From IMG/VR virus record IMGVR_UViG_2671180676_000004, positions 1 to 64,000 of that record: 64,000 nt of DNA; one strand, given 5' to 3'. Source of the DNA: a virus (lineage: Duplodnaviria > Heunggongvirae > Uroviricota > Caudoviricetes). A model generated the notes under the pieces. That model had not been told where the DNA came from. It saw only the letters and a list, made by a program, of their open reading frames with translations, and did not search any database. Positions 5,546 to 56,400 of the stretch are shown here, one piece after another (positions within the stretch are counted from its first letter, which is position 1; the number at the start of each line of letters is the position of its first letter). The position numbers and the translations under genes are program-made.

Positions 5546-8500
5546 CTATATCTGCCCACCTACTCCTTTGAACTTTTCAATAAACGTGACGATTTTCTGG
5601 AAAACCGTCTGTTTTTTCGTTTTATATTGCGGGTTTAACGGACTAAGTTTTGGTAATGTCTCGTTTAATTCTGTGCCATTTTCGGTGGCGTATTCGCGTT
5701 TTAAAGACGTGCGAATATAGCGTTTCGCCGCCTCTTCATTGAGATTTTCTTCTTTAATCAACGCTTCTGCTTCACGTAGCTGTTCGTGTTGAGCAAAGGT
5801 AAAGAACGCGTCAATGATGCTGGCTTTGTCTGGTAAATCATCCAGGTTCGTTTGCTGAATAAAATCGACCACCAGGCCCTCTTTAGCACGGTTCCCTAGG
5901 CTTGAACGAATTAAGCGTTTGACCTCTTCGATCATTTCGCCCTTGCCTTTATTTTGTCTGTTGTGTTCGAAAATCAGTCCAAGGATATAATCCAGGTTTA
6001 TTTCCTGAGACTTCAGCAAATCGACCTCAAAAACTACGTCATCCCAGTCAGTGGTTGATTTCTCTTTTTTCTCAGCTTCTTTCTCACGGCGCTGCCAGTC
6101 GCGAATATCGTTATAGGCAGAACGATAATCCTGAATCTTGCGATCAGCAGGGAGACGAATTGTTTGCAATTCAGCGAACTTTTCATCATCCACATAATGT
6201 TCTGCTTTGAATTTTTCTACCGCAACAGGATCGCTAAGATCGATTTGTTGCAGGGCTTTTAGCGTGGCAAATTCATCATAGTTTTGCAGGATGTTCTCGG
6301 CACGCAGGTATTCGCCAAACAGTTTAACGAAGTCTTTCTTCTCTTTTTCACTTTCAATACTGGCAGGGTCAGGGAACCGTTGTTCCAGTTCTGAAACTAC
6401 TGCCATAAAGCCGCGTTTAGCTTCACCTGTAGCAGCATCAGTAAAGCCTTCCATATACTCTGCATAACTCTTTTCTAACACTACATTTTTGGTGTTTTTG
6501 TCACCAAACAGCGTTATGGCATCGATGGTTGAGCGTTCCAGATCGCGGAAAGTGACGATATTACCGAAGGTTTTAGTCGCGTCATAAATGCGGTTGGTAC
6601 GGGAAAATGCCTGCATCAGGCCGTGAAAACGCAAGTTTTTATCGACGAATAGCGTGTTTAATGTTGGAGCATCGAAGCCGGTTAAAAACATCCCCACGAC
6701 GATTAACAAGTCAACATCCTGATTTTTAACCCGCTGAGCCAGGTCCCGATAGTAGTTCTGAAAACCCTTGCTATCAGTGCTGAAATTCATTTGAAAATGG
6801 TCGTTATACTCACGAATTGCAGCGTCCAGAAACTCTTTAGCACTGCTGTCCATTGCACTGGTATCAAAAGATTCATCGGATATTTCACCAATGGCATTTT
6901 GTTCTTCATTAGCGGCAAAGGAGAAGATTGTCGCAACACGCAGTGGTTTATAGGTAGCAGATTTATTAGCTGCTTCCTCTTGTAACCGTTTAAACGTCGC
7001 GTAATAGGCTTTCGCGGCATCCACGCTGCTCACTGCCAACATAGCATTAAAACCTTTTGAGCCAGGGAAGGTACGGTGGGTTTTCTGGCGGAAATTATTC
7101 AGAATATATTGCGTGATTTCCTGAATACGCATGGGATGAAGAAACGCCTGCTGATTTTCAGCCGCACTCAGTTTTTTCTCGTCAGTTTCTGTCTCTAAAG
7201 ACTTAAACTGTGGCCGCACATCGTTGTAGTCCACCTTGAATTTGAGCACTTTTTCGTCACGAATCGCATCGGTAATTACATACGAATGCAATTCACGACC
7301 AAATACGCTGGCGGTTGTTTCTGAGCCTAAGGCGTTTTCCGGGAAAATAGGGGTGCCGGTAAAACCAAACTGATAATAACGTTTGAATTTCTTCTTCAGG
7401 TTTTTCTGCGCTTCTCCAAACTGGCTGCGGTGGCATTCATCAAATATAAACACCACTTGCTGATTATATACAGGCAGGTCGCTTTCTGCTTTCATCAGGT
7501 TATTGAGTTTCTGAATAGTAGTGACGATAATTTTGTTATCGTCCTTATCCAGATTTCGTTTAAGGCCTGCGGTATTTTCCGAGCCGTTGACGCTGTCTGG
7601 CGAAAAACGCTGATATTCCTTCATGGTCTGGTAATCGAGGTCTTTCCTGTCGACCACAAAGAAGACTTTATCAATAAAGTCCAGCTCTGTTGCCAGACGC
7701 GCGGCTTTAAAGCTGGTGAGGGTTTTACCAGAACCGGTAGTGTGCCAGATATACCCACCGCTTTCCGGTTTTGACCAGTTCTTCGCTGTAAAGGAACTCT
7801 TAATTTTCCACAGAATGCGCTCGGTGGCGGCAATCTGGTACGGTCGCATCACCAGTAGCGTCTGACTACTGTCAAAAACGCTGTAGTTCACCAGAACATT
7901 CAGCAGAGTATGTTTCTGGAAAAAGGTAGCGGTAAAGTCTTTGAGGTCTTTAATCAGCGTGTTGTCTGATTTCGCCCAATTCATGGTGAAGTCAAAACTG
8001 TTTTTATCGCGCTTTGTGGTGTTGGCAAAATAACGGGTATCAGTGCCGTTGGAAATGACGAACAGCTGCAGATACTTAAACAGGGAATTTTCGCTGTTAA
8101 AACTCTCTTTACTGTAACGATGTATCTGGTTGAAAGCCTCACGAATCGCCACCCCGCGTTTTTTTAGTTCGATTTGCACCAGCGGTAAACCATTAACCAG
8201 GATCGTGACGTCATAACGGTTAGCATGAGAACCCGTCTGTTCAAACTGCTGGATAATCTGCACCTTATTGCGCATGAGATTCTTTTTATCTATCAAATAG
8301 ATGTTCTCAAGTCGCCCGTCGTCAAAAATAAAGTCGCAGATATAGTCGATATGGATTTTACGGGTTTTATCCAGAATACCATCGCTGGGGTTGTCCAGAT
8401 ACTGCTCCGTGAAGCGCCGCCACTCGCTGTCATTAAACATCACACCATTGAGGCTCTGAAGCTGTTCCCGAACATTGGACAGCATTGCCGACTGTGATTT

Positions 8501-8662
8501 TACGGAAATAAATTCATAACCCTGATTCCGCAGGTCCTGAATCAGTTCACGTTCCAGGTCCGATTCGCTCTGGTAGCTGTCGCTTGTTTGCTCAGCTTTG
8601 ATGTACTTATCAAGGACGATAAAGTTATTGGATTCAGCAATGGTGTGTGTTTGATGAGTCAT
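5546..8662 (-). CDS. hsdR: Type I restriction enzyme R subunit
   Basis: 1038 aa; SF2 motifs TGSGKT and DECH ([10 protein letters not shown]); directly downstream of hsdM-hsdS. Confidence 0.9.
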
Positions 8663-8784
8663 AGCGCATCCTTTGTGCCGCCTGGCAAGAGCCGGAAGGG
8701 CGTTAAGAGTGACTTCCGGCGCGTAAAAAAATAGTCTATATACTGACCGGGTGTTAAGGTGGCCCGATCGGTAGCAATGGTCAA

Positions 8785-10023
8785 TTAATTACTGACAGTT
8801 TCAGGTTTCGGGAAACTGAACAGTAAATCACGGTAGTATTCGTATTGTTTCTGGCGCAACTCGATTTCACGCGGGAGACCTTCGGTGATGGAGTTGGTCA
8901 GGGTGTCGAATTTATCGAGCAGAGCAGATATTCGCTCTTGTTTCTGTTTATCAGGCAATGGCACTGGTAATGTTTTTATAATATCTGCATTCAAGTTACT
9001 GACCGACCCGCTATTGATTTTACTTTCCCAATAATTTTTCACCTTTTTTGATGAAAGATAGTGATACAGATAATCAGCATTTAATTTTTCACCAAAATTG
9101 CTGATTGATGCCCATCCATCATGGATAGCTCCGGTTATCCTTAAAATATATGGTCTGCCAAAGCTCATAGAGTTAGAAATGACGAAATCACCGGGGTTCA
9201 AGATTCGCGATTTTTGGGCACCCTCTGCAGTTATTTTTTGTAAGGTTTTGTCAATGTATTTAGAGCCGGGGATAGTATCTCCGATTTTAATCCATGGGAT
9301 ACCATTTCCTTGTTCAGTAAGATAATTAACAATTGGCCTGGGGGATGCCCCACGTTGTATTTTGGCTACTTCTCCCAATGCCTTCCACTCAACCTCACCC
9401 TCTTTAAAACTCAGCAACTGGTCGCGATAGTAGTTGTACTGTTTTTTACGCATGTTAAGCTCAGCGGTAAGCTCAGCGGTAAGTGCAGTAAACTTATCCA
9501 GAATCCGAACAATTTCAGACTGGATGGCAAGGGATTTTCCCGGGGCGCTGGGACAAGGGATGGGTATTTGATAGTTTAAAATTGCATCTTTACTGCCTCG
9601 AGGCATCTTTGCCCCTTTAGCGTGCTGCATACTGTAAGAAAAAAATGAATCCGACGATAATGCATAGTAGAGATATTCTGGACTAATAATTTTTTTACAG
9701 TCTGCTAAAATGCGTATAGCAAGGACATCACCACTGCACCCGCCATTATTCTCCGCCATCCAAACTTTCTTTAAATATGGGCGAATATTACCTAAAAGAA
9801 TATCACCTGGCTCATAGGCAGTTAAACGTGCCGTATTAGGCTGATAGGTGGCGTCAATGCGACCGCCTTTATCAGCAAGGAGATTATCAACGCCAACGAA
9901 TGAAGTGGCATCAAGTTTATCAGCATCAACTTTGGTTGTTGAATACCCGGCGATATCGCCCACTGCTTTCCACTCAACCTCAACCCCATCCAGCAATTTT
10001 TCCAGATAACTCAACTCGCTCAT
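8785..10023 (-). CDS. hsdS: Type I restriction-modification specificity subunit
   Basis: 412 aa with two target-recognition halves, each ending in a conserved coiled spacer (…[16 protein letters not shown] / …[16 protein letters not shown]); overlaps hsdM by 4 nt. Confidence 0.85.
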
Positions 10024-17471: not shown

Positions 17472-17623
17472 TCGTTTCCTATGATAATGGTTTTCACTTT
17501 GAGATTGTTATTTTTCATAGCTAAAGCTGATGTTTGTGGAAGGTGGATTGATAAACGGATGCGTATTTAGGTTATACAAGTGAGAAAATTGATAATATAT
17601 AAACGCGATTTTTATGTGATGGA

Positions 17624-18193
17624 ATGGATGTGATGGAAACCCAGAACCAACAAACAAAACCTCTGAATAACATTTATGCGTGGATTCTAGCGTTCATGCC
17701 TTTCTTCTTTGGAGTATCGCCGGAAGAGTATACCAATTACGCTATTATAATTGGGGGTGTAACTACCATCGGTTTGTTAGTAGCTGACAGAATGGCTCTA
17801 TCGGAGTCTGGCTGTGAACCACCTTCAATTCTATGGGGGGTATTCCTCCTGCCTGTCTATCTCTGGAAGCGCGCGACTATTACAAAAGGCAGCAGAGTGC
17901 CATTTATCATAATCGTTGCGTCGCTGGCTTGGGTTATCTTCATCGGCATCCCACACAAGGACGAGGTTGCTCTTGAAGAAGCAGCCTGCCCTCTCGTGAC
18001 AACTATTCTGAAAGAGAATAACGGTTCGACTGCACCAAAATGTATGAAGGTGACAATAGAGGACAAGGTGACGGATAAGTTCTATAGAGCAACGGCTACA
18101 CTAGACAATGGTAATGACATTAACATTACTCTGGAACTTACCGGCGACAGGAACTTCTACGTCCGTGTTCCAAATGTTTATCTGAACAACTAA
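17624..18193 (+). CDS. Membrane protein with four predicted TM helices and a soluble C-terminal domain
   Basis: Hydrophobic segments IYAWILAFMPFFF, AIIIGGVTTIGLLV, ILWGVFLLPVYLW, FIIIVASLAWVIFIGI; alternative start 17633. Confidence 0.5.
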   Translation: MDVMETQNQQTKPLNNIYAWILAFMPFFFGVSPEEYTNYAIIIGGVTTIGLLVADRMALSESGCEPPSILWGVFLLPVYLWKRATITKGSRVPFIIIVASLAWVIFIGIPHKDEVALEEAACPLVTTILKENNGSTAPKCMKVTIEDKVTDKFYRATATLDNGNDINITLELTGDRNFYVRVPNVYLNN

Positions 18194-18289
18194 CGGTTGC
18201 AACTCATTGATAATGGCGGTCACAATTTGATTCTTTTCTATAAGAATCCGTTGATCGCCACTACTCCCCTTCCATACCCGCAATCACAT

Positions 18290-19100
18290 CCTTAAATATC
18301 AATAAGTTATAGTTGTTTATACAATCAAGAAAACAACTGAATAACAGATCAACGAAACATCAACGCTTTCACCCGATTTGGTCTAAAAAATTGACGTTTT
18401 CACACATCACTGCTTATACCCGTAATTCTACGCAGCAGACAGCGCCACAGCGTCCAATTTTCACCACAGACGACCCAACACACTACCAACAAAAACACAC
18501 GCTCAAAATCGTTCCCGTTGCGTTACATAACCATATAAACAACTTATTTCAGGCATAACAAAACAACTAAATAACACATATGCCATTCCCAAAACAACCA
18601 ACCTCTTTATGGCAGGCTACCGAAAAGACCCACCTCTTCTTCCCAGGCTACCGGACAACCAACCTAACTTTCACAGGCAATCCGAAAACATTCATACGCG
18701 CGATACCCACGACACGCCATTACCCAAACAGCGAAGAAACATCAGAATCACTGAAACCCCAACGAAGCCTGTAACCGCAAGGTTTCTCTCAATCCCAAAA
18801 GACACGAAACATAACAATCACGGGAAACGCCATTACCCAATACACGAATAACTACAAAAGCCCTTCACGCACTCCAGACAAACAACTCAAACACAATAAC
18901 GAAAGGAATCGCCCACCTGCCATTACTCCATACACGGAGAAGAACAATCACCAAAACGACGAGAACACCCCATAGAAGAACCACCGCAAAACGAACGAAA
19001 CCATTTACACCGACAGAGAGAACAACACGCCCAATTCACCAACAGAAATAGTCGCCGTATAGAACGTTCTGGAAGGAGTGAGCATTAACGCCTATAGAGA
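18290..19100 (+). repeat. A+C-rich, G+T-poor strand-skewed region with degenerate tandem repeats
   Basis: Repeated units such as acgccattacccaa(a/t)ac… and caggctaccg…; track ORFs here have implausible Thr/Pro/His/Gln-rich translations. Confidence 0.5.
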
Positions 19101-19261
19101 GGTTGAGACAGATAAAACACGAAGAAAACACAACATGTATAGCGAAGAAGCCAGGTATGTATAAGTGGGGAGGGAAGGAGGGGTGTCGCCTCCTTTTTCG
19201 TATTTATTCAACTCCTGATTTTATCCCCCGTAACACCCCTACGGTCAGCCTTCGGTCCATA

Positions 19262-19395
19262 CAGGGAAAAGGTTGCATCCCGCTACAGAAACGGCTGGGT
19301 TGCCTTCGGGGAACGGCTGGAGGTTTTCAGGGAAACGGTCGAGTTGCCTGTGTGGATTTCGGGAAAAGGCTCGATGCCGGTTCAGGAACGGCGGC
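19262..19395. repeat. Iteron-like direct repeat array (GGGAAAcGGc)
   Basis: Six copies (gggaaaagg, agaaacgg, gggaacgg, gggaaacgg, gggaaaagg, ggaacgg) spaced about 21-24 bp, one gap about 31 bp. Confidence 0.45.
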
Positions 19396-19728
19396 GTACC
19401 GGTATAGCGTGAGGGAGAGTTGCGGCTACCCACCTGTAATGTGCGGGAAGAAGAGAGGCGCTCACGTGCAGGCGAACTTACTTACCGCTGGATTCCCTCT
19501 GAATGCCCAGCTACAGCGTAATTGTGCCAGACAGCCAACGGGTCACAATCGATTTCAGTAGGTTTTCGGGGAGAGGATTATTCTGCCCACCAGCCACCTT
19601 CGGCCACTAAATCAGAATAATGTAAAAAGTGTACTCGATACTGAACCTGAAAACTCACTGCCAAAACAACATTCACCGGAATAAAATCCTTTTTCGCCTG
19701 TGCGTTATTGCGATAATAACACCAACGA

Positions 19729-19743
19729 GAAAACAATTTGTTT
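19729..19743 (+). promoter_or_regulatory. Motif A palindrome
   Basis: gaaaacaatttgttt, 13 nt before ATG 19756. Confidence 0.45.
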
Positions 19744-19755
19744 AAGGATTGCTTT

Positions 19756-20085
19756 ATGTTTGCAAATATCGACATCAACCAAATCAAGAAATTAACTCAA
19801 AAAGAGTTTGATCAGTTTTATGAGTTAGAAGGTTGGTCTTCCACTCTGATCAATTCGCGGTGGGTGCTTGAGCTGATGACTCGTGATGACGCACCTGCTT
19901 TGATGATTTGCGACATGGGTGAAGATGCTGACTTTATGGATATGAGCGAATTTTGTGTGGACACATACAACCGCAGCCAGAAGTACTACTTCACATGCGA
20001 TAGCGAAAATGACGTGATTTCTAAGGTCTATCTTCACCTCGTCCAGCATTGGGACGTTCAGGAGTTTCTTGAAGTATTCGAGTAA
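19756..20085 (+). CDS. Hypothetical protein (109 aa)
   Basis: ATG 19756; track start 19738 is TTG. Confidence 0.5.
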   Translation: MFANIDINQIKKLTQKEFDQFYELEGWSSTLINSRWVLELMTRDDAPALMICDMGEDADFMDMSEFCVDTYNRSQKYYFTCDSENDVISKVYLHLVQHWDVQEFLEVFE

Positions 20086-20212
20086 CCCCAACCAAAGCCA
20101 GCAATGCTGGCTTAATTTCTCTATAGCCGCAGGGAGGAACCTGCATATCGATCATGCACCTGATCATTATGCTTTGTAGCCGTTTTCTTACTGGTATTAT
20201 TTACGCCATTGA

Positions 20213-20227
20213 GAAAACAAGTTGTTT
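20213..20227 (+). promoter_or_regulatory. Motif A palindrome
   Basis: gaaaacaagttgttt, 12 nt before ATG 20239. Confidence 0.45.
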
Positions 20228-20238
20228 ACGGAGTTGTG

Positions 20239-20550
20239 ATGAAAAAATCATTGGTTCTTGGTCTGGACAAAGACCAGAAGAGAAAAGAGAAGCCTGCACT
20301 GGTTGCTCAATTAACTTTGCTAGACATCGTTGCCAATGGAACTTCTATTCGTCTGTTCCGTGAAACAGCGGTGTCTTTCGATAAAAACACCTTTACTCGT
20401 TATGTAATGAATGTTCGTCGCCAGCGTGGAAAAGGATGGGTGGCATTTCAAAGAATGTGGCCGGAACATCAGCTCGAACTGGCCTTGATGGAAGTTAACC
20501 GCGTGGCCCAGCAAGAAATTCAGAGAGCATCAGTGATGGCAATAGCCTGA
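20239..20550 (+). CDS. Hypothetical protein (103 aa)
   Basis: ATG 20239 with SD GGAG. Confidence 0.5.
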   Translation: MKKSLVLGLDKDQKRKEKPALVAQLTLLDIVANGTSIRLFRETAVSFDKNTFTRYVMNVRRQRGKGWVAFQRMWPEHQLELALMEVNRVAQQEIQRASVMAIA

Positions 20551-20584
20551 TAATGTGCAAGTGGTAATTAGTCGACAGTACGAC

Positions 20585-20612
20585 AGCCCCGCCATCCTTA
20601 CGGGGCTTTTTT
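20585..20612 (+). terminator. Intrinsic terminator
   Basis: agccccg-ccatcctta-cggggct + TTTTTT. Confidence 0.8.
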
Positions 20613-20618
20613 GTATTG

Positions 20619-20634
20619 TAAGTACATACTTACG
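20619..20634. repeat. Motif B palindrome (gtaagtacatacttac)
   Basis: 7-bp arms GTAAGTA/TACTTAC upstream of gene 20677. Confidence 0.5.
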
Positions 20635-20676
20635 ATCATAGAATATAAAAATAACCAATACACTACGGAGAGTGAA

Positions 20677-21072
20677 ATGACCGTTAAACGCGAAAAACTG
20701 ACAGTTGATGTTTACTATGCCTCTGAAACCGCCGAAGGTAAGAATGTGGCAAAAATCACCGTTGTTACGTACAACACCGAAACTGGTGCCGAAGTCCAGG
20801 CCAGTACGATCGTGCGTAAAGGTGACGCCTCCGGCGGCGAGTACGCGACTCAATACCAGTCCATTCTCGATGCAACTGACCCGCTGCTGCTGAAAATCGA
20901 GAACTACTTCCGCCAGGTTGATGAAGAGGTGTTTGAAACCATGATGAATATGGTTAACACCGTATTCGCCTCCAGCCTGAACACCAGCACCACCTGGATT
21001 GGCCAGTACGGTCTGCGCATTACCTCTGGCATTCCTGCCGACACCTTAATCCCTGAAAGCGTATTCGCTTAA
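20677..21072 (+). CDS. Hypothetical protein (131 aa)
   Basis: ATG 20677 with SD GGAG; bracketed by intrinsic terminators. Confidence 0.5.
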   Translation: MTVKREKLTVDVYYASETAEGKNVAKITVVTYNTETGAEVQASTIVRKGDASGGEYATQYQSILDATDPLLLKIENYFRQVDEEVFETMMNMVNTVFASSLNTSTTWIGQYGLRITSGIPADTLIPESVFA

Positions 21073-21081
21073 TCCTCTTTA

Positions 21082-21108
21082 AATGGCGCGTAAACCGCGC
21101 CATTTTAT
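21082..21108 (+). terminator. Intrinsic terminator
   Basis: aatggcgcg-taaac-cgcgccatt + TTATTA. Confidence 0.7.
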
Positions 21109-21118
21109 TATGCCCGAT

Positions 21119-21131
21119 AACAATTTGTTTT
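21119..21131 (+). promoter_or_regulatory. Motif A variant (aacaatttgtttt)
   Basis: Upstream of ATG 21154/21190. Confidence 0.35.
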
Positions 21132-21189
21132 CTGCCTTATCAGATTTGTGAAAATGATTTCACTGAAGCAACTTAATAAGGAAACCATC

Positions 21190-21564
21190 ATGGGACTTGA
21201 TATCTATATCGAGACACAGCCTAAAAACGATCTGAATAACGAGGCATCCAGAAAGCAGGTTGCTTACTTCCGTAAGTTCAATGCGCTCGTTGGGTGGATG
21301 GAGCGCAACGTAGGTGAAGTCGAAAATTGTGAGCTTTTAGAATTAACGATGAATGACATTTGTCTTCTGAAAGCTCATTTGATGCACATAAACGAAAGCA
21401 ATTGCGAAGAGTACTTGCCTACTCGGGAAGGTTTTTTCTTCGGCAGTCAGGAGTACGACGAAGGTTACTGGCATGACGTGGATAAGCTGAAAAAACTTGT
21501 GGAAGACCTGATCAGGAACCACGACTTTCACAATAACAGACTGACCTTCTGCGCCTGGTGGTAA
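21190..21564 (+). CDS. Hypothetical protein (124 aa)
   Basis: ATG 21190 with SD AAGGA; in-frame alternative ATG 21154 lacks an SD. Confidence 0.45.
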   Translation: MGLDIYIETQPKNDLNNEASRKQVAYFRKFNALVGWMERNVGEVENCELLELTMNDICLLKAHLMHINESNCEEYLPTREGFFFGSQEYDEGYWHDVDKLKKLVEDLIRNHDFHNNRLTFCAWW

Positions 21565-21566
21565 AT

Positions 21567-21710
21567 ATGGGCGATTTCAAGAAACGCCTGAAGGAAAGAG
21601 CCGAGATGGTCAGAAAGCAAAACGCCTCTTCTGTCATCAGATACGCAAGGCAGTTTAGTCGCAACAACAAATCAGTTGAGGAAAAGATCCTTAGCGTAAT
21701 CGGTCGATAA
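21567..21710 (+). CDS. Possible coupled small ORF (47 aa)
   Basis: ATG 2 nt after upstream stop (MGDFKKRLKERAEMVRKQNASS…); followed by hairpin 21716-21741. Confidence 0.25.
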   Translation: MGDFKKRLKERAEMVRKQNASSVIRYARQFSRNNKSVEEKILSVIGR

Positions 21711-21715
21711 TTATT

Positions 21716-21741
21716 AAGGCCATCAGCATTGATGGCCTTAA
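21716..21741. terminator. Perfect 8-bp-stem hairpin (ggccatca-gcat-tgatggcc)
   Basis: Perfect stem but no T-run, so terminator function uncertain. Confidence 0.35.
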
Positions 21742-21764
21742 ATGACCATCCTGTTTCCCGCAGG

Positions 21765-21850
21765 CTAAAAACACCAACCTCTTACCTCCAGGCAACCGAC
21801 AAACCCACCTGTTCCCGTCCGGCTACCGCAACTTTCCACTTTGACGCCTT
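21765..21850. repeat. Repeat related to 18590-18680
   Basis: accaacctctt…caggc(a/t)accg(a)ca(a)acccacct… shared between the two loci. Confidence 0.45.
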
Positions 21851-21879
21851 ATTCGTACAACGATAATTAACACCAATAA

Positions 21880-21893
21880 GAAAACAATTTGTT
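21880..21893 (+). promoter_or_regulatory. Motif A palindrome
   Basis: gaaaacaatttgtt, 22 nt before ATG 21915. Confidence 0.45.
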
Positions 21894-21914
21894 ATTTACG
21901 ATAAGGAATTAATC

Positions 21915-22397
21915 ATGAATTTTATCGCTACTGTAAACGCACCCGCACATGGCAATATCGCTGTAACGTTCTCTGACATTGAAAAACGAGTACTTGGTGC
22001 ATGGCGCGACAATGAGACGGTAGAACTGTCAGCACAAGAAAAATGCATTATTGCACGCGACATCATTGGCAATCGTCGTTACTCGCGGGTATTTGAGAAA
22101 GCGTATGTGGTAAATTCTGGATTCGGAACGTTCGTCTTTCCGGTGCGCTCCGGGCGATTCTGCCAGTCCAAGCTGATTGAGTTCGCTACGCAGATTTCTG
22201 TCTGGATTAAAACTCAATCGTCGTTCAAATTTTCCGACGATGAAGCAGTATCGCAGGGGATGCGGATCGCCAACAATGCGATTAAATGCAAAAACATTAC
22301 GTATACCGCTGGCGTTGACACATGGAAACTGTTTTGCGCTAACTTTATGCTGAATGTATACGCAAGCAACCGCATCCACATCCTTGATGGCGTGTAA
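21915..22397 (+). CDS. Hypothetical protein (160 aa)
   Basis: ATG 21915 with SD AAGGA. Confidence 0.5.
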   Translation: MNFIATVNAPAHGNIAVTFSDIEKRVLGAWRDNETVELSAQEKCIIARDIIGNRRYSRVFEKAYVVNSGFGTFVFPVRSGRFCQSKLIEFATQISVWIKTQSSFKFSDDEAVSQGMRIANNAIKCKNITYTAGVDTWKLFCANFMLNVYASNRIHILDGV

Positions 22398-22404
22398 CTG
22401 AGAA

Positions 22405-22428
22405 GAGGGCCAGAAACGGCCCTTTATC
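22405..22428 (+). terminator. Terminator-like hairpin (gagggcc-agaaac-ggccctt)
   Basis: Stem-loop right after the stop of 21915..22397; weak T tract. Confidence 0.45.
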
Positions 22429-22440
22429 TATAGCCACCAG

Positions 22441-22525
22441 CTGCCGCAGGGAAATTTTCAGAAACGGCGAGGAACGTATTCATGAGCCGACGGGGAACGG
22501 CCAGGATTTTTTCGGGAAACGGCTG
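22441..22525. repeat. Second iteron-like block (GGGAAAcGGc-type repeats)
   Basis: cagggaaa, cagaaacggcg, aggaacg, ggggaacggcc, cgggaaacggctg. Confidence 0.4.
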
Positions 22526-22987
22526 CATTCGCCTTTATGTAGAAAAAACATCGGGAAGCTGGTGGAATCCAACCAGCGGTTGTCGGACAGGTGAGCGGGG
22601 AAAATTATGATGACTTTCGTCACCTGAGACATCCAGATTTCTTTCGTAGCATAATTACATACGTGATTAAGTGGTGTGATTATGTGAAAAATCACGCGCA
22701 CATAATACGCGAGCGGATACGGAACAAAACAAAATGCCGATCCGCGCCGACAAATAAACGCGGATCATAAAGCAAGACTAAAAGCCAATGATTAACCATA
22801 CTCTATAGCGCAATATAACGCGTTTTAAGCGCGTTAATGTGTTAAGTAATGGGTATGTACTGGTAAGGATATAAAAGCGCGTCTATGGCGTTATTTTGGC
22901 GCTTATTTTTATGTTGTTGGAGTGAGTTAAAGACAATAAAAAACGCGCTAATGATGGCGCGTTATGGTGGGAGTATTGGAAACGAAA

Positions 22988-23006
22988 AAAGCGCCCATAG
23001 TGGGCG
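22988..23006. terminator. Bidirectional hairpin (agcgccca-tag-tgggcgct)
   Basis: On the minus strand it is followed by TTTTTT, so likely terminates the minus-strand operon ending at 23014. Confidence 0.6.
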
Positions 23007-23013
23007 CTCGATT

Positions 23014-23515: not shown

Positions 23516-24166
23516 TTACGCTTTGAAAGCATCAGCTAAATAATTGTAGAAATCATTTTTAATGAAGCGATATTGCTGAGTACCAGCTTTCGCACTCCCA
23601 GCTCCTTTGACTTTTTCAACAAGTCCAAGACGTTCGCAAAGATTGATCAACTGGTTGGCTTGAGTATAGCCAGCGTCCAATTTAATTTCACACGCTTTTT
23701 TAGCTTCATTCATTAAATCGAAAACAGCGCCATTGGTGAACGTGTCGATCTCGTCGTTAATCATATCGATTAAAGCGAATACACGAGATCCAGACATATC
23801 AGCGATGGAATAAACGCATTTACCAGATTTAATTGATTTAACCAGATAAACCAGTTTTTCCAGAGAATAACTATTAGTCATTGCATCACGAAAAAATACT
23901 TCTGGCGCTTGTTTGCTTGCTTTAATCGCATAGTAGAAAACAGAGCATAATTTTTCGTCTTCTACTGCGTTTACGACGTTGTTGATGAAGTAAGCAAGTT
24001 TAGTGGTCGCAGCTTGCATATTTGCTTTGTCTGCTTTAGTGTGCGTACCATTTTTATAATGTTCGTTATATGTTTGAGTTGCCAGATCTGCTTTTTCGCG
24101 CAGTTCATCGGATACAATGGAAGCAGCTTCAATGATGGATTTTTTAGAAATGATAATGTTAGCCAT
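23516..24166 (-). CDS. Hypothetical protein (216 aa)
   Basis: ORF in AT-rich DNA; no recognisable motif. Confidence 0.5.
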   Translation of the reverse strand: MANIIISKKSIIEAASIVSDELREKADLATQTYNEHYKNGTHTKADKANMQAATTKLAYFINNVVNAVEDEKLCSVFYYAIKASKQAPEVFFRDAMTNSYSLEKLVYLVKSIKSGKCVYSIADMSGSRVFALIDMINDEIDTFTNGAVFDLMNEAKKACEIKLDAGYTQANQLINLCERLGLVEKVKGAGSAKAGTQQYRFIKNDFYNYLADAFKA

Positions 24167-53444: not shown

Positions 53445-56400
53445 ATGTGGTACAGGGAAGGTACTATCACATTTACACAGGGTAGCAATACTCTGGTTGG
53501 GGCAGGGACAGCCTGGAACGTAACAGCTAATGGTGTGTTGCCGGGGATGATCGTCATTGGCCCCGACAATAAGCTGTATGAGATCAAGCGCGTAATAAGC
53601 GATACGAATATTGTTCTCTCAGAACCTTATACCGGCGAAACTCAGTCTGAGGTTCCGTGCCGAATCATTACGACCTATGAAGGCGACTTAACACAGTTTA
53701 GCGCGCGCTTTACAGCACTAATGTCGCGTATGTCGGCTGATTCCAAGTCTATGCGCAGTTGGTTGACTGCTCTGGATGAGGTGACAATCGAGCGTGAAGA
53801 CGGTACAGAAGTAACCGTTAAGCCGCTAATGCAGATCGTCAACGAGCACAACGAAAACGTTGAGTGGTATAAAAATAACACTGACGCGATTGATGCTGCT
53901 GGCGACAAAGCTCGTGAGGCGGCGGCCAGTGCTGCCGCAGCAGCAGAAAGCGCCAATACCGCTGGAGAAAAAGCCTCTCAAGCGTCTCAAAGTGCATCCG
54001 CTGCGGCATCCTCACAAAGTGCCGCAAGTGCGAGTGCAACTGCTGCGAAAAAATCTGAAACGAATGCCGCAGCGTCACAACAATCAGCAGCCACTTCTGC
54101 ATCCACCGCGACCACGAAAGCGTCAGAAGCTGCCACCTCAGCCCGGGATGCGGCGGCCTCAAAAGAGGCAGCGAAATCATCAGAAACGAGCGCAGCCTCG
54201 AGCGCCAGTAATGCCGCTTCCTCGGCAACGGCGGCAGGAAATTCCGCGAAGGCGGCAAAAACGTCCGAGACGAACGCCAGGTCTTCTGAAACGGCAGCGG
54301 GACAGAGCGCCTCGGCTGCGGCAGGCTCAAAAACAGCGGCTGCGTCGTCTGCCAGTGCCGCGTCAACAAGTGCCGGGCAGGCCTCAGCCAGTGCCACCGC
54401 CGCCGGAAAATCGGCAGAAAGTGCCGCATCGTCTGCTTCAACAGCCACAACGAAGGCTGGCGAAGCCACTGAACAGGCCAGCGCAGCAGCGAGGTCTGCT
54501 TCCGCAGCGAAGACATCCGAAACGAACGCGAAAGCGTCGGAAACCCGTGCAGAATCCTCAAAAACGGCAGCCGCATCGTCCGCCAGTTCGGCAGCGTCAT
54601 CGGCATCATCGGCGTCTGCTTCAAAAGATGAGGCGACCAGACAAGCGTCCGCAGCGAAGGGCAGCGCCACGACAGCATCCACGAAAGCAACAGAGGCGGC
54701 AGGCAGTGCGACGGCAGCATCTCAGAGCAAAACTGCTGCTGAATCCGCTGCGACCCGTGCGGAAGCTGCTGCTGATCGTGCTGAAGAGATTGCCGGTGCA
54801 GTTGCGATGGAAGATGCAAGCCTTACCACCAAAGGTGTTGTGAAACTTAGCAGTGCTGTCGACAGCACCAGTGAATCTTTAGCCGCGACACCAAAAGCAG
54901 TTAAGACCGCATATGATAATGCTGAAAAACGACTACAGAAGGATCAGAATGGTGCTGATATCCCCGACAAGGGCCGCTTCCTGAATAACATTAATGTTTA
55001 CAGCAAAGGTGAAGTGGATCAGAAAAAGGGGATGCGATACGTTGTGGTCAATGCCCCGGCGGGTGTCCAGGAAGGTAAATATTATCCGTTAGTGATAAAA
55101 AGGAATGACAGCCATCGGGCATCCCGCGTTGTCATTTCAACGCCAAGTCGCACAGCTAATCACAGAATGAATAACTGTGAGTTTAATGGTTTTGTTTGCG
55201 CAGGCGGCTGGACGGACCGGGGTAGCTATGCCTGTGGTATGTTCTGGGCTTATTCATCATCGGAACGCGCTATTCATTCCATTCTGATGAGTAATAAAGG
55301 CGATACCGTAGACAGCGTATTCTATATAGAAGGTGGGGCATTTCCCGTAGAGGTCTTTTTAGAAGAAGGACTTTCTGTTACTGCTCCTGCTTCTGATTAT
55401 GTTGTTGCTGAAACGACTTATAAATTTGGCGCAACTGATCCTTATTCTGAATCAGTTGCGGTAAATTTAATTTTAGATTTTAAACAAGGTAATGGATTTT
55501 ATAGTTCGTATCCTGTTTTGAGTAAGTCAGACATTAGCGGTAATAAGGTTTACGCTAATGATGAAGTTATTGTCCGTAGTCAGAATGCGTTAAGGATGAT
55601 TGCTGGCGATTACGGTGTCATATGGCGAAATGATGGAGCAAATACTTACTTGCTCATGACTGATAAAGGCGACCAGTACGGTGGCTGGAACGGTCTTCGA
55701 CCATTTGCAGTAAATAACGCAACAGGTGAAGTGACGATCAATACACCACTTAATTCTCCAAAAGGGGTTAAGGGGAACTCTGATACAGCTACGAAACTTC
55801 AGACTGCAAGAAAAATATCCGGTGTTCCATTTGATGGCTCTACTGATATCACTTTAACCGCCGCGCATGTTGCCGCTTTCGCAAGAAGAGCAACAGGGTC
55901 ATATGCTGATGCTGATGGCGGCGTGCCGTGGAATGCTGAATCTGGTGCTTATAATGTAACTAGAACGGGCGACAGTTATATTCTTGCCAACTTTTATACT
56001 GGTGTAGGTAGTTGCCGTACGCTTCAAATTAAGGCTCACTATAAAAATGGTGGGTTGTTTTATCGTTCATCTCGCGATGGAAGTGGTTTTGAAAGTGGTT
56101 GGGAGCAGGTTTACACGACTGGATTTAGACCTCAGCCGGCTGATATAAACGCACCAACCGCTGCCGCCGGATGGTTAAATAGTGGTAACGGAACAGCATT
56201 TACGACTGCTCAGTTTATAACGTGGCTAAATAATCAGGGTGCATTTTCAAACAAATATTGGATTGCACGGTGCTCATGGACTTACGCCAACAATAATTAT
56301 ATAGACGACACTGGATGTGGCAGGATCGATCTATCTGGTTCCGTGATTGAGGTGTTTAGTAATAAGTCAACAAGCCACTACACTATTCGTGTTACAACGA

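Follow-up and report, generated by a model that had tools for sequence, protein, structure and literature searches.

Paired arrays of a conserved GRAAMGG direct repeat in the phage backbone of SSU5/pHCM2-type phage-plasmids, candidate protein-binding sites with a possible role in phage-mode replication

The origin of phage lambda combines iterons with an AT-rich region, and SPP1 has oriL and oriR, bound by G38P. Direct-repeat arrays also serve as partition centromeres, as in parC of R1 and parC1 and parC2 of pB171, and the centromeres of N15 are dispersed. For phage-plasmids of the SSU5/pHCM2 type, the RepA replicon of the plasmid mode is known; in the searchable literature we found no description of their phage-mode replication or of the switch to it, nor of a lytic origin, despite their own replisome genes. 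Here we consider the first 64,000 nucleotides (nt) of IMG/VR record IMGVR_UViG_2671180676_000004, referred to below as the window, which the annotation of its relatives identifies as an E. coli SSU5/pHCM2-like phage-plasmid. It carries two arrays of a short direct repeat, GRAAMGG, that are a widespread and previously unannotated signature of the phage backbone in this type of element; no description of such arrays was found in the searchable literature. The arrays most likely bind a protein on DNA, and a protein other than RepA.

The two arrays in the window are as follows.

19262-19395, plus strand: array 1, six units with the core GGGAAAMGG and the minimal core G[GA]AA[AC]GG (GRAAMGG), namely GGGAAAAGGT at 19264, cAGAAACGGC at 19286, GGGGAACGGC at 19308, GGGAAACGGT at 19330, GGGAAAAGGC at 19361 and cAGGAACGGC at 19383
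22407-22525, plus strand: array 2, same motif and orientation as array 1, with cores at 22413, 22461, 22494 and 22516
about 22448 and about 22471, plus strand: weaker units of array 2, GGGAAAT and AGGAACG respectively

The minimal cores of array 1 start at 19266, 19288, 19310, 19332, 19363 and 19385, and are thus spaced by 22, 22, 22, 31 and 22 nt, close to two and three helical turns. This agrees with the initial annotation, which had described six iteron-like direct repeats phased at about 21-24 base pairs (bp) with one gap of about 31. Past the last unit, degenerate GGGA motifs continue at irregular intervals. The cluster is not random: the minimal core occurs 29 times on the two strands of the window, six times in array 1 and four times at 22413-22516, with those ten all on the plus strand, and 500 sequences simulated from the window with a first-order Markov model, each scored for its largest cluster of cores within 130 nt, had a maximum of three (reached in 14 of the 500, the others giving one or two) as against the six observed in 126 nt. 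Array 2, which lies 3.1 kilobases (kb) from array 1 in the window, includes a 37-nt stretch that matches 19302-19338 of array 1 at 76%.

Matches to the array region were found in 716 plasmid records (Klebsiella, Escherichia, Enterobacter, Salmonella, Citrobacter and Cronobacter), and in none of them does an annotated feature underlie the match. Over 18500-20500 the window shares 97% identity with Escherichia phage Cyrano; further matches there are to other E. coli phage-plasmids and, only in part, to Salmonella phage SSU5. About 60 loci collected from public plasmids, phages, IMG/VR and GTDB genomes fall into five lineages (Escherichia; Salmonella/Citrobacter; Klebsiella; SSU5/Enterobacter/Kluyvera; Cronobacter) with 54-76% identity in the array region. 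Array 1 is found in all of these loci and array 2 in every one that reaches far enough, in the same orientation and 1.5-4.2 kb downstream of array 1; one complete relative of 107.6 kb has no further GRAAMGG clusters. A generic search of IMG/VR with a two-unit pattern returned only SSU5-like elements, plus chance or coding matches. A 49-kb "mini" record is an incomplete linear assembly.

The repeats are under selection. Mean column entropy among 45 distinct homologues is 0.26 bits in the cores vs. 0.75 bits in the spacers, a roughly threefold difference (p = 8.6e-7), and with cores conserved and spacers free the arrays behave as selected cis-acting binding-site arrays would. The E. coli, Salmonella-type and SSU5-type lineages share the register of 22/22/22/31/22 nt despite divergence of the spacers (23 of 48 homologues); four units at 22/22/22(23) nt are found in the Klebsiella and Cronobacter types. 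The number of units varies by whole units, some genomes having lost whole units. The window and these homologues have at least three direct repeats of the same orientation, about two helical turns apart as in iterons; in loci L133 and L207-L211, the two most divergent groups, the spacing is 24-36 nt.

Both arrays lie behind predicted terminators, and array 2 is followed by others.

19172-19199, plus strand: terminator-like hairpin with a T-run, 65 nt upstream of array 1, ending an A/C-rich untranslated stretch
22407-22427, plus strand: hairpin GGGCC-AGAAAC-GGCCC followed by TTTAT, directly after the stop codon of a gene for a 160-amino-acid (aa) protein
22609-23009: AT-rich convergent intergenic stretch (GC 0.34-0.43) with seven terminator-like hairpins, five on the minus and two on the plus strand

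The first of these has a counterpart in other lineages, with a weaker T-run. Array 2 begins 10 nt past the stop codon, and the loop and 3' arm of the 22407-22427 hairpin contain its first core; the stem of this hairpin covaries among lineages, the loop always includes GRAAAY, and this covariation indicates that the terminator is real. The minus-strand hairpins to the right would shield array 2 from the convergent minus-strand genes. A consensus scan limited to sigma-70-type promoters gave no promoter-like site between the 19172-19199 terminator and array 1, and the nearest one (19658-19687) has array 1 260-390 nt upstream of it; no terminator was found between array 1 and the next gene. With a terminator ahead of each, the arrays are thus predicted to be insulated from transcription. 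The 22609-23009 stretch also holds repeats of AAGCGCGTTAATG. In L133, the most divergent relative, an 11-nt tandem repeat (GCTAAACTGCTAAATGGCTAAAC...) occupies 6730-6805, directly to the right of array 2, in place of the AT-rich pile-up of terminators.

The arrays are not linked to the RepA replicon. Relatives of the window are annotated with genes for tail, capsid, terminase, helicase, primase, DnaE, ligase, a UvsW-like helicase and an IncFIB-type repA. In plasmid pXH988_2, whose array region is 98.5% identical, the IncFIB repA lies about 33 kb from the arrays and is flanked by many repeats at 21-bp spacing, of CTCTCTATAGTGGATA type, a different motif; no GRAAMGG clusters occur around it. RepA iterons adjoin repA in the related IncpKPHS1 plasmids as well (PMC6735626). 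The same arrays are carried by IncFIB plasmids and by a Cronobacter plasmid typed as rep_cluster_763. RepA iterons and RepA titration sites are ruled out by the differing motif together with the presence of the arrays alongside another replicon type; these same facts and the distance of about 33 kb place the arrays in the phage backbone. The initial annotation had seen no Rep-like initiator nearby, and indeed there is none within 20 kb on either side of the matching site in pXH988_2. Its description of the repeats as iteron-like holds for their conservation, phasing, pairing and insulation, and fails if taken to mean the iterons of the recognised RepA replicon.

With good confidence we favour a binding array that acts on DNA over one that acts as RNA, which we think unlikely. 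We infer that a sequence-specific protein, not RepA, would bind the tandem sites as double-stranded DNA, loading side by side with one site every two helical turns in most of the lineages, and that the nucleoprotein complex would form on DNA kept free of transcription by the terminators. Of the roles considered, one in replication is the most likely, the arrays being a second, phage-mode (lytic) origin or its control element; we put this forward tentatively, as a leading explanation that still falls short of being probable. Array 2 and the adjoining AT-rich, Chi-flanked region would then be the candidate initiation zone, with 22609-23009 as the candidate unwinding region, and array 1 might be an auxiliary array for pairing or titration, as incA and incC are in P1.

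The Chi octamer, 5'-GCTGGTGG-3', acts with RecBCD in E. coli, where Chi sites flank the bidirectional origin in divergent orientation, and any activity of the sites in the window is presumed from that precedent. The window has 12 of them vs. 1.25 expected, an approximately tenfold enrichment, and pXH988_2 has 28.

13211, 15578, 19587, 22434, 22558, 26289 and 33638: examples of Chi sites in the window, tending to the minus strand left of array 2 and to the plus strand right of it
22434-22441, minus strand: Chi at the left edge of array 2, also found in 24 of 26 distinct homologues
22558-22565, plus strand: Chi to the right of array 2, present in 26 of 26 sequences at varying positions within about 160 nt
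19587-19594, minus strand: Chi about 190 nt downstream of array 1, inside the conserved block ...TTCTGCCCACCAGCC...

In most lineages, array 2 is flanked by a Chi pair in the divergent, origin-like orientation. If an origin is placed at array 2 and the terminus opposite to it, this agrees with the orientation of 21 of the 28 Chi sites of pXH988_2 (permutation p = 0.007), 20 of 31 in SSU5 (p = 0.11) and 18 of 28 in a Klebsiella plasmid (p = 0.047). We regard Chi polarity as a hint, and not as evidence of origin function.

A number of observations weigh against an origin or its control. The Chi-polarity hypothesis was formed after the data had been seen, and the three genomes are related to each other; a scan of Chi polarity has its maxima at or near the arrays without reaching significance (p = 0.10-0.76), and neither does an unconstrained fit with two breakpoints (p = 0.34). 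The left Chi of array 2 is lost in SSU5, and no Chi lies beside array 2 in L133. The argument from helical phasing is weakened by the loss of the 22-nt spacing in the two most divergent groups, where the same motif recurs at intervals of 36/28/24/34 nt in L133 and of 24 nt in L207-L211. Only about nine of the 22 nt in each unit are conserved, and the arrays have neither an adjacent Rep gene nor repeats that match those at rep. Sites resembling DnaA boxes are not enriched in the window (six found, seven expected), one of them (22683-22691) being in the AT-rich stretch that adjoins array 2, and a composition scan found no AT-rich region beside array 1, around which GC is 0.51-0.59. Finally, array 1 lies in a gene-free region of about 1.5 kb whose strand asymmetry is conserved, with about 900 nt of A/C-rich sequence followed by about 200 nt of G-rich sequence, and this asymmetry hints at a function as a single strand, be it RNA or single-stranded DNA, at least for the upstream part.

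The arrays might instead be operators or roadblocks, with a phage transcription regulator (a repressor, an excisionase/Cox-like protein or a silencer) coating the borders of the early gene cassette at 19757-22397, whose expression it would control or insulate, and with no part in replication. They do bracket small plus-strand genes that share a promoter/leader module, with regulator-type neighbours that include a Flag1_repress-family regulator and the "repressor-like" SSU5_116 between the arrays; another repeat family, 30 nt long and in three copies, lies directly upstream of a promoter, and the irregular spacing of the divergent lineages would be better tolerated by operators than by origins. 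However, neither array overlaps a promoter-like site, array 2 lies downstream of the last gene, both borders are already marked by terminators, and the motif is constant even where the proteins encoded next to it are only about 50-60% identical, so an operator function seems to us somewhat doubtful. As RNA, array 1 would be part of a leader or intergenic transcript and array 2 part of the 3' untranslated region of the 160-aa gene, bound by a CsrA-like host regulator or by a phage protein. Such a reading, whose low standing was given above, would account for the orientation of all units of both arrays, which is that of the flanking genes, for the strand asymmetry of the gene-free region, for the GGGA motifs that trail off past array 1 and the uneven spacing in divergent lineages, for the fact that array 2 always has its first unit within the loop of a covarying RNA hairpin, and for a motif that is invariant across host genera, as one would expect for a conserved host factor. 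It is opposed by the terminators that precede both arrays and by the lack of a promoter-like site between terminator and array 1, and the arrays are not structured RNA. Rfam gave nothing relevant, CsrB/RsmZ-type families included, for the whole window at gathering thresholds or for 17500-20500 at E values up to 10, the only match being a sub-threshold one to DUF3800-VIII on the minus strand. Single-sequence folds of array 1 are no better than shuffled on either strand (z = +0.84 and +1.13), and in an RNAalifold consensus of 45 homologues, about 250 columns long, only 13-16 pairs are conserved. The fold of array 2 is a little more stable than shuffled sequence (z = -1.79), owing mostly to a CCACCAGC/GCTGGTGG stem that is exactly Chi. 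GGA motifs presented in the hairpin loops of a discrete transcript, as in CsrB and RsmZ, were not found, nor was an upstream promoter paired with a downstream terminator. Moreover, both arrays conserve units that lack GGA (CAGAAACGG), from which it follows that the selected core is GRAAMGG and not GGA, and we reject a CsrA sponge on that ground. The strict 22-nt register kept in five lineages also sets the arrays apart from sponge RNAs such as CsrB, which are not known to have one.

A role in segregation or packaging, as a partition centromere (cf. N15) or as a recognition site for terminase or a ParB-like protein, is very unlikely in our view. Direct repeats in two clusters that are shielded from transcription are usual for centromeres, and among the genes of the element are those for a ParA-like ATPase and its small partner and, upstream of the terminase genes, for two ParB_N-domain proteins. 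Yet the ParA-like operon (7663-8690 of pXH988_2) is far off and has no GRAAMGG cluster within 1 kb, where a partition centromere would be expected, the motif is not palindromic as ParB-type parS sites are, and in relatives the terminase genes lie about 11-13 kb from the arrays. Almost certainly wrong is the view that array 1 is coding sequence, or that the repeats are an artefact of chance or composition. Depositors of Cyrano, PhiR41_1 and SSU5 did call hypothetical coding sequences over the array region (CYRAN_104, SSU5_109), and the stretch is free of stop codons. All three plus-strand frames are open over array 1 in 24 of 48 homologues, though, as a composition effect of a T-poor stretch; indels among homologues are not multiples of three (an insertion of about 10 nt, for example, and the losses of whole units), and no RefSeq relative has a PGAP annotation anywhere in the gap of about 1.5 kb. 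The CYRAN_104 and SSU5_109 calls are probably spurious. The statement in the initial annotation that the repeats overlap no credible open reading frame was right in substance, as the 152-codon frame at 19103-19561 runs through the terminator hairpin. Chance is further opposed by a cluster far above anything in the simulations and by the recurrence of the motif as array 2, just past a stop codon. The open frame of the window and the hypothetical coding sequences annotated over the array in the Cyrano and SSU5 records lie at the following positions.

window 19103-19561
L001 8660-9064
L007 1633-1830

The region upstream of array 1 contains several further repeat families, one of which recurs upstream of array 2.

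18200-19060, plus strand: gene-free A/C-rich stretch upstream of array 1, with GC skew down to -0.55 and G at 9-18%
18716, 18829 and 18919, plus strand: repeats within the A/C-rich stretch, of GCCATTAC... / GCCATTACCCAAtACACGgAgAAgAAC type
18591-18687, plus strand: three 30-nt repeats, ACCaACCT-N8-CAGGCTACCGaaAA, about 665 nt upstream of array 1
21739-21832, plus strand: a second triplet of this 30-nt repeat, about 665 nt upstream of array 2

Every lineage has kept both the composition and the sequence blocks of the A/C-rich stretch, which could serve as an insulator that loads Rho or else be a non-coding RNA terminated at 19172-19199. Triplets of the 30-nt repeat lie 650-725 nt upstream of each array in every lineage but L133, where the search pattern gave none, and those at 21739-21832 abut the promoter-like TTGACG-17-TAATTA of the 160-aa gene. 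Between repeats and array, module 2 has this promoter and the 160-aa gene, and module 1 the A/C-rich untranslated stretch ending at the terminator; on sequence grounds the two modules look like duplicates of each other. They might be a hitherto undescribed bipartite cis-acting system whose two duplicated modules act together as the lytic origin of the SSU5 family and/or as a switch from plasmid to phage, a proposal we consider decidedly unlikely as it stands. Each module would then run from three 30-nt repeats through about 570 transcribed nt and a terminator to a GRAAMGG array, the transcript of module 1 would be an A/C-rich non-coding RNA and that of module 2 would encode the 160-aa protein, and what binds the arrays would be a factor, possibly a protein of the host, that is conserved throughout Enterobacteriaceae.

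Three conserved genes between or beside the arrays come into consideration in the search for the protein that would bind the arrays on DNA.

20239-20550, plus strand: gene for a 103-aa protein, phrog_5125, between the arrays; candidate binding protein
21915-22397, plus strand: the 160-aa gene, phrog_1641, ending immediately before array 2
23516-24166, minus strand: gene for a 216-aa protein, phrog_1513, convergent on array 2; a binding candidate by position only

In the Cronobacter lineage the phrog_5125 and phrog_1641 genes are the only ones between the arrays, making up the minimal conserved cassette, and both families are confined to the SSU5-type phages. Pfam, PHROGs and NCBIfam give no function for the neighbouring proteins; the three families have no relative in Pfam, in NCBIfam or among solved structures, and no Rep-like family or fold. 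The phrog_1641 model (pLDDT 85) has no structural neighbour, and phrog_1513 is a small family without a link to solved structures. The array motif is the same across relatives of phrog_1513 and phrog_1641 that are down to about 50-60% identity, and thus there is no co-variation of motif and protein to exploit. The promoter/leader module of the small genes, TAATaACACCAAnnAGAAAACAAtTTGTTTAnGGA, is shared by three of them (19714-19748, 20198-20232 and 21865-21899) and contains an inverted repeat, AAACAA-TT-TTGTTT, just upstream of the ribosome-binding site.

Three other features of these elements were seen in passing. A divergent pair of genes, metG (methionyl-tRNA synthetase) and apbC/mrp, lies at about 13.7-17 kb of the window, going by the annotation of L001 and L010; the two genes are arranged in this way on the E. 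coli chromosome too, which suggests capture from a host. Within the structural-gene region, 54001-55000 is an outlier in composition (GC 0.58, AT skew 0.31). Outside the window, pXH988_2 has at 9622-9678 an AT-rich palindrome with 28-nt arms that are 89% complementary, upstream of a gene that is itself followed by those for the DnaB-like helicase and primase, and this palindrome, too, is a candidate cis-acting site for replication.

Clinical Klebsiella, E. coli, Enterobacter and Salmonella commonly harbour phage-plasmids of the SSU5/pHCM2 type, and some members of the group are reported to carry resistance genes. The repeat-rich 1.5-kb region and the second array provide a concrete candidate for the cis-acting machinery of the phage mode. 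If the arrays prove to be an origin or a control site and their binding protein a new one, this would explain how the element manages two modes of replication and would supply a typing marker; were they only operators, their value would be local.

Among described systems, CsrB and RsmZ resemble the arrays in having many purine-rich GGGA/GGA motifs on one strand, and differ in that our arrays show no Rfam match, hairpin presentation or conserved structure, conserve units that lack GGA, and have terminators upstream rather than downstream. The centromeres of R1, pB171 and N15 likewise consist of short direct repeats, in two clusters and free of transcription, whereas the arrays described here lie away from the par operon and their motif is absent from its flanks. 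With lambda ori and SPP1 the locus has in common short arrays of direct repeats, an AT-rich stretch (here beside array 2) and replisome genes of its own, and in the case of SPP1 also the two copies kilobases apart; the initiator gene of those phages, however, contains or adjoins the origin, whereas here no initiator is recognisable and array 1 is without an AT-rich flank. Iteron replicons such as P1 incC/incA, F incB/incC and RepFIB, to which the RepA region of the element itself belongs, differ in having a Rep initiator, which is not found between or beside our arrays, and in conserving 17-22 nt per unit rather than about nine; the actual RepA iterons of the element are of another sequence and about 33 kb away, and the two divergent lineages have lost the spacing. 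In their architecture, on the other hand, the iteron replicons are alike: direct repeats of one orientation, with a period of about 22 bp and four to six copies, are set in two arrays that bracket a short gene cassette, and they change in number by whole units while their cores are conserved and their spacers free.
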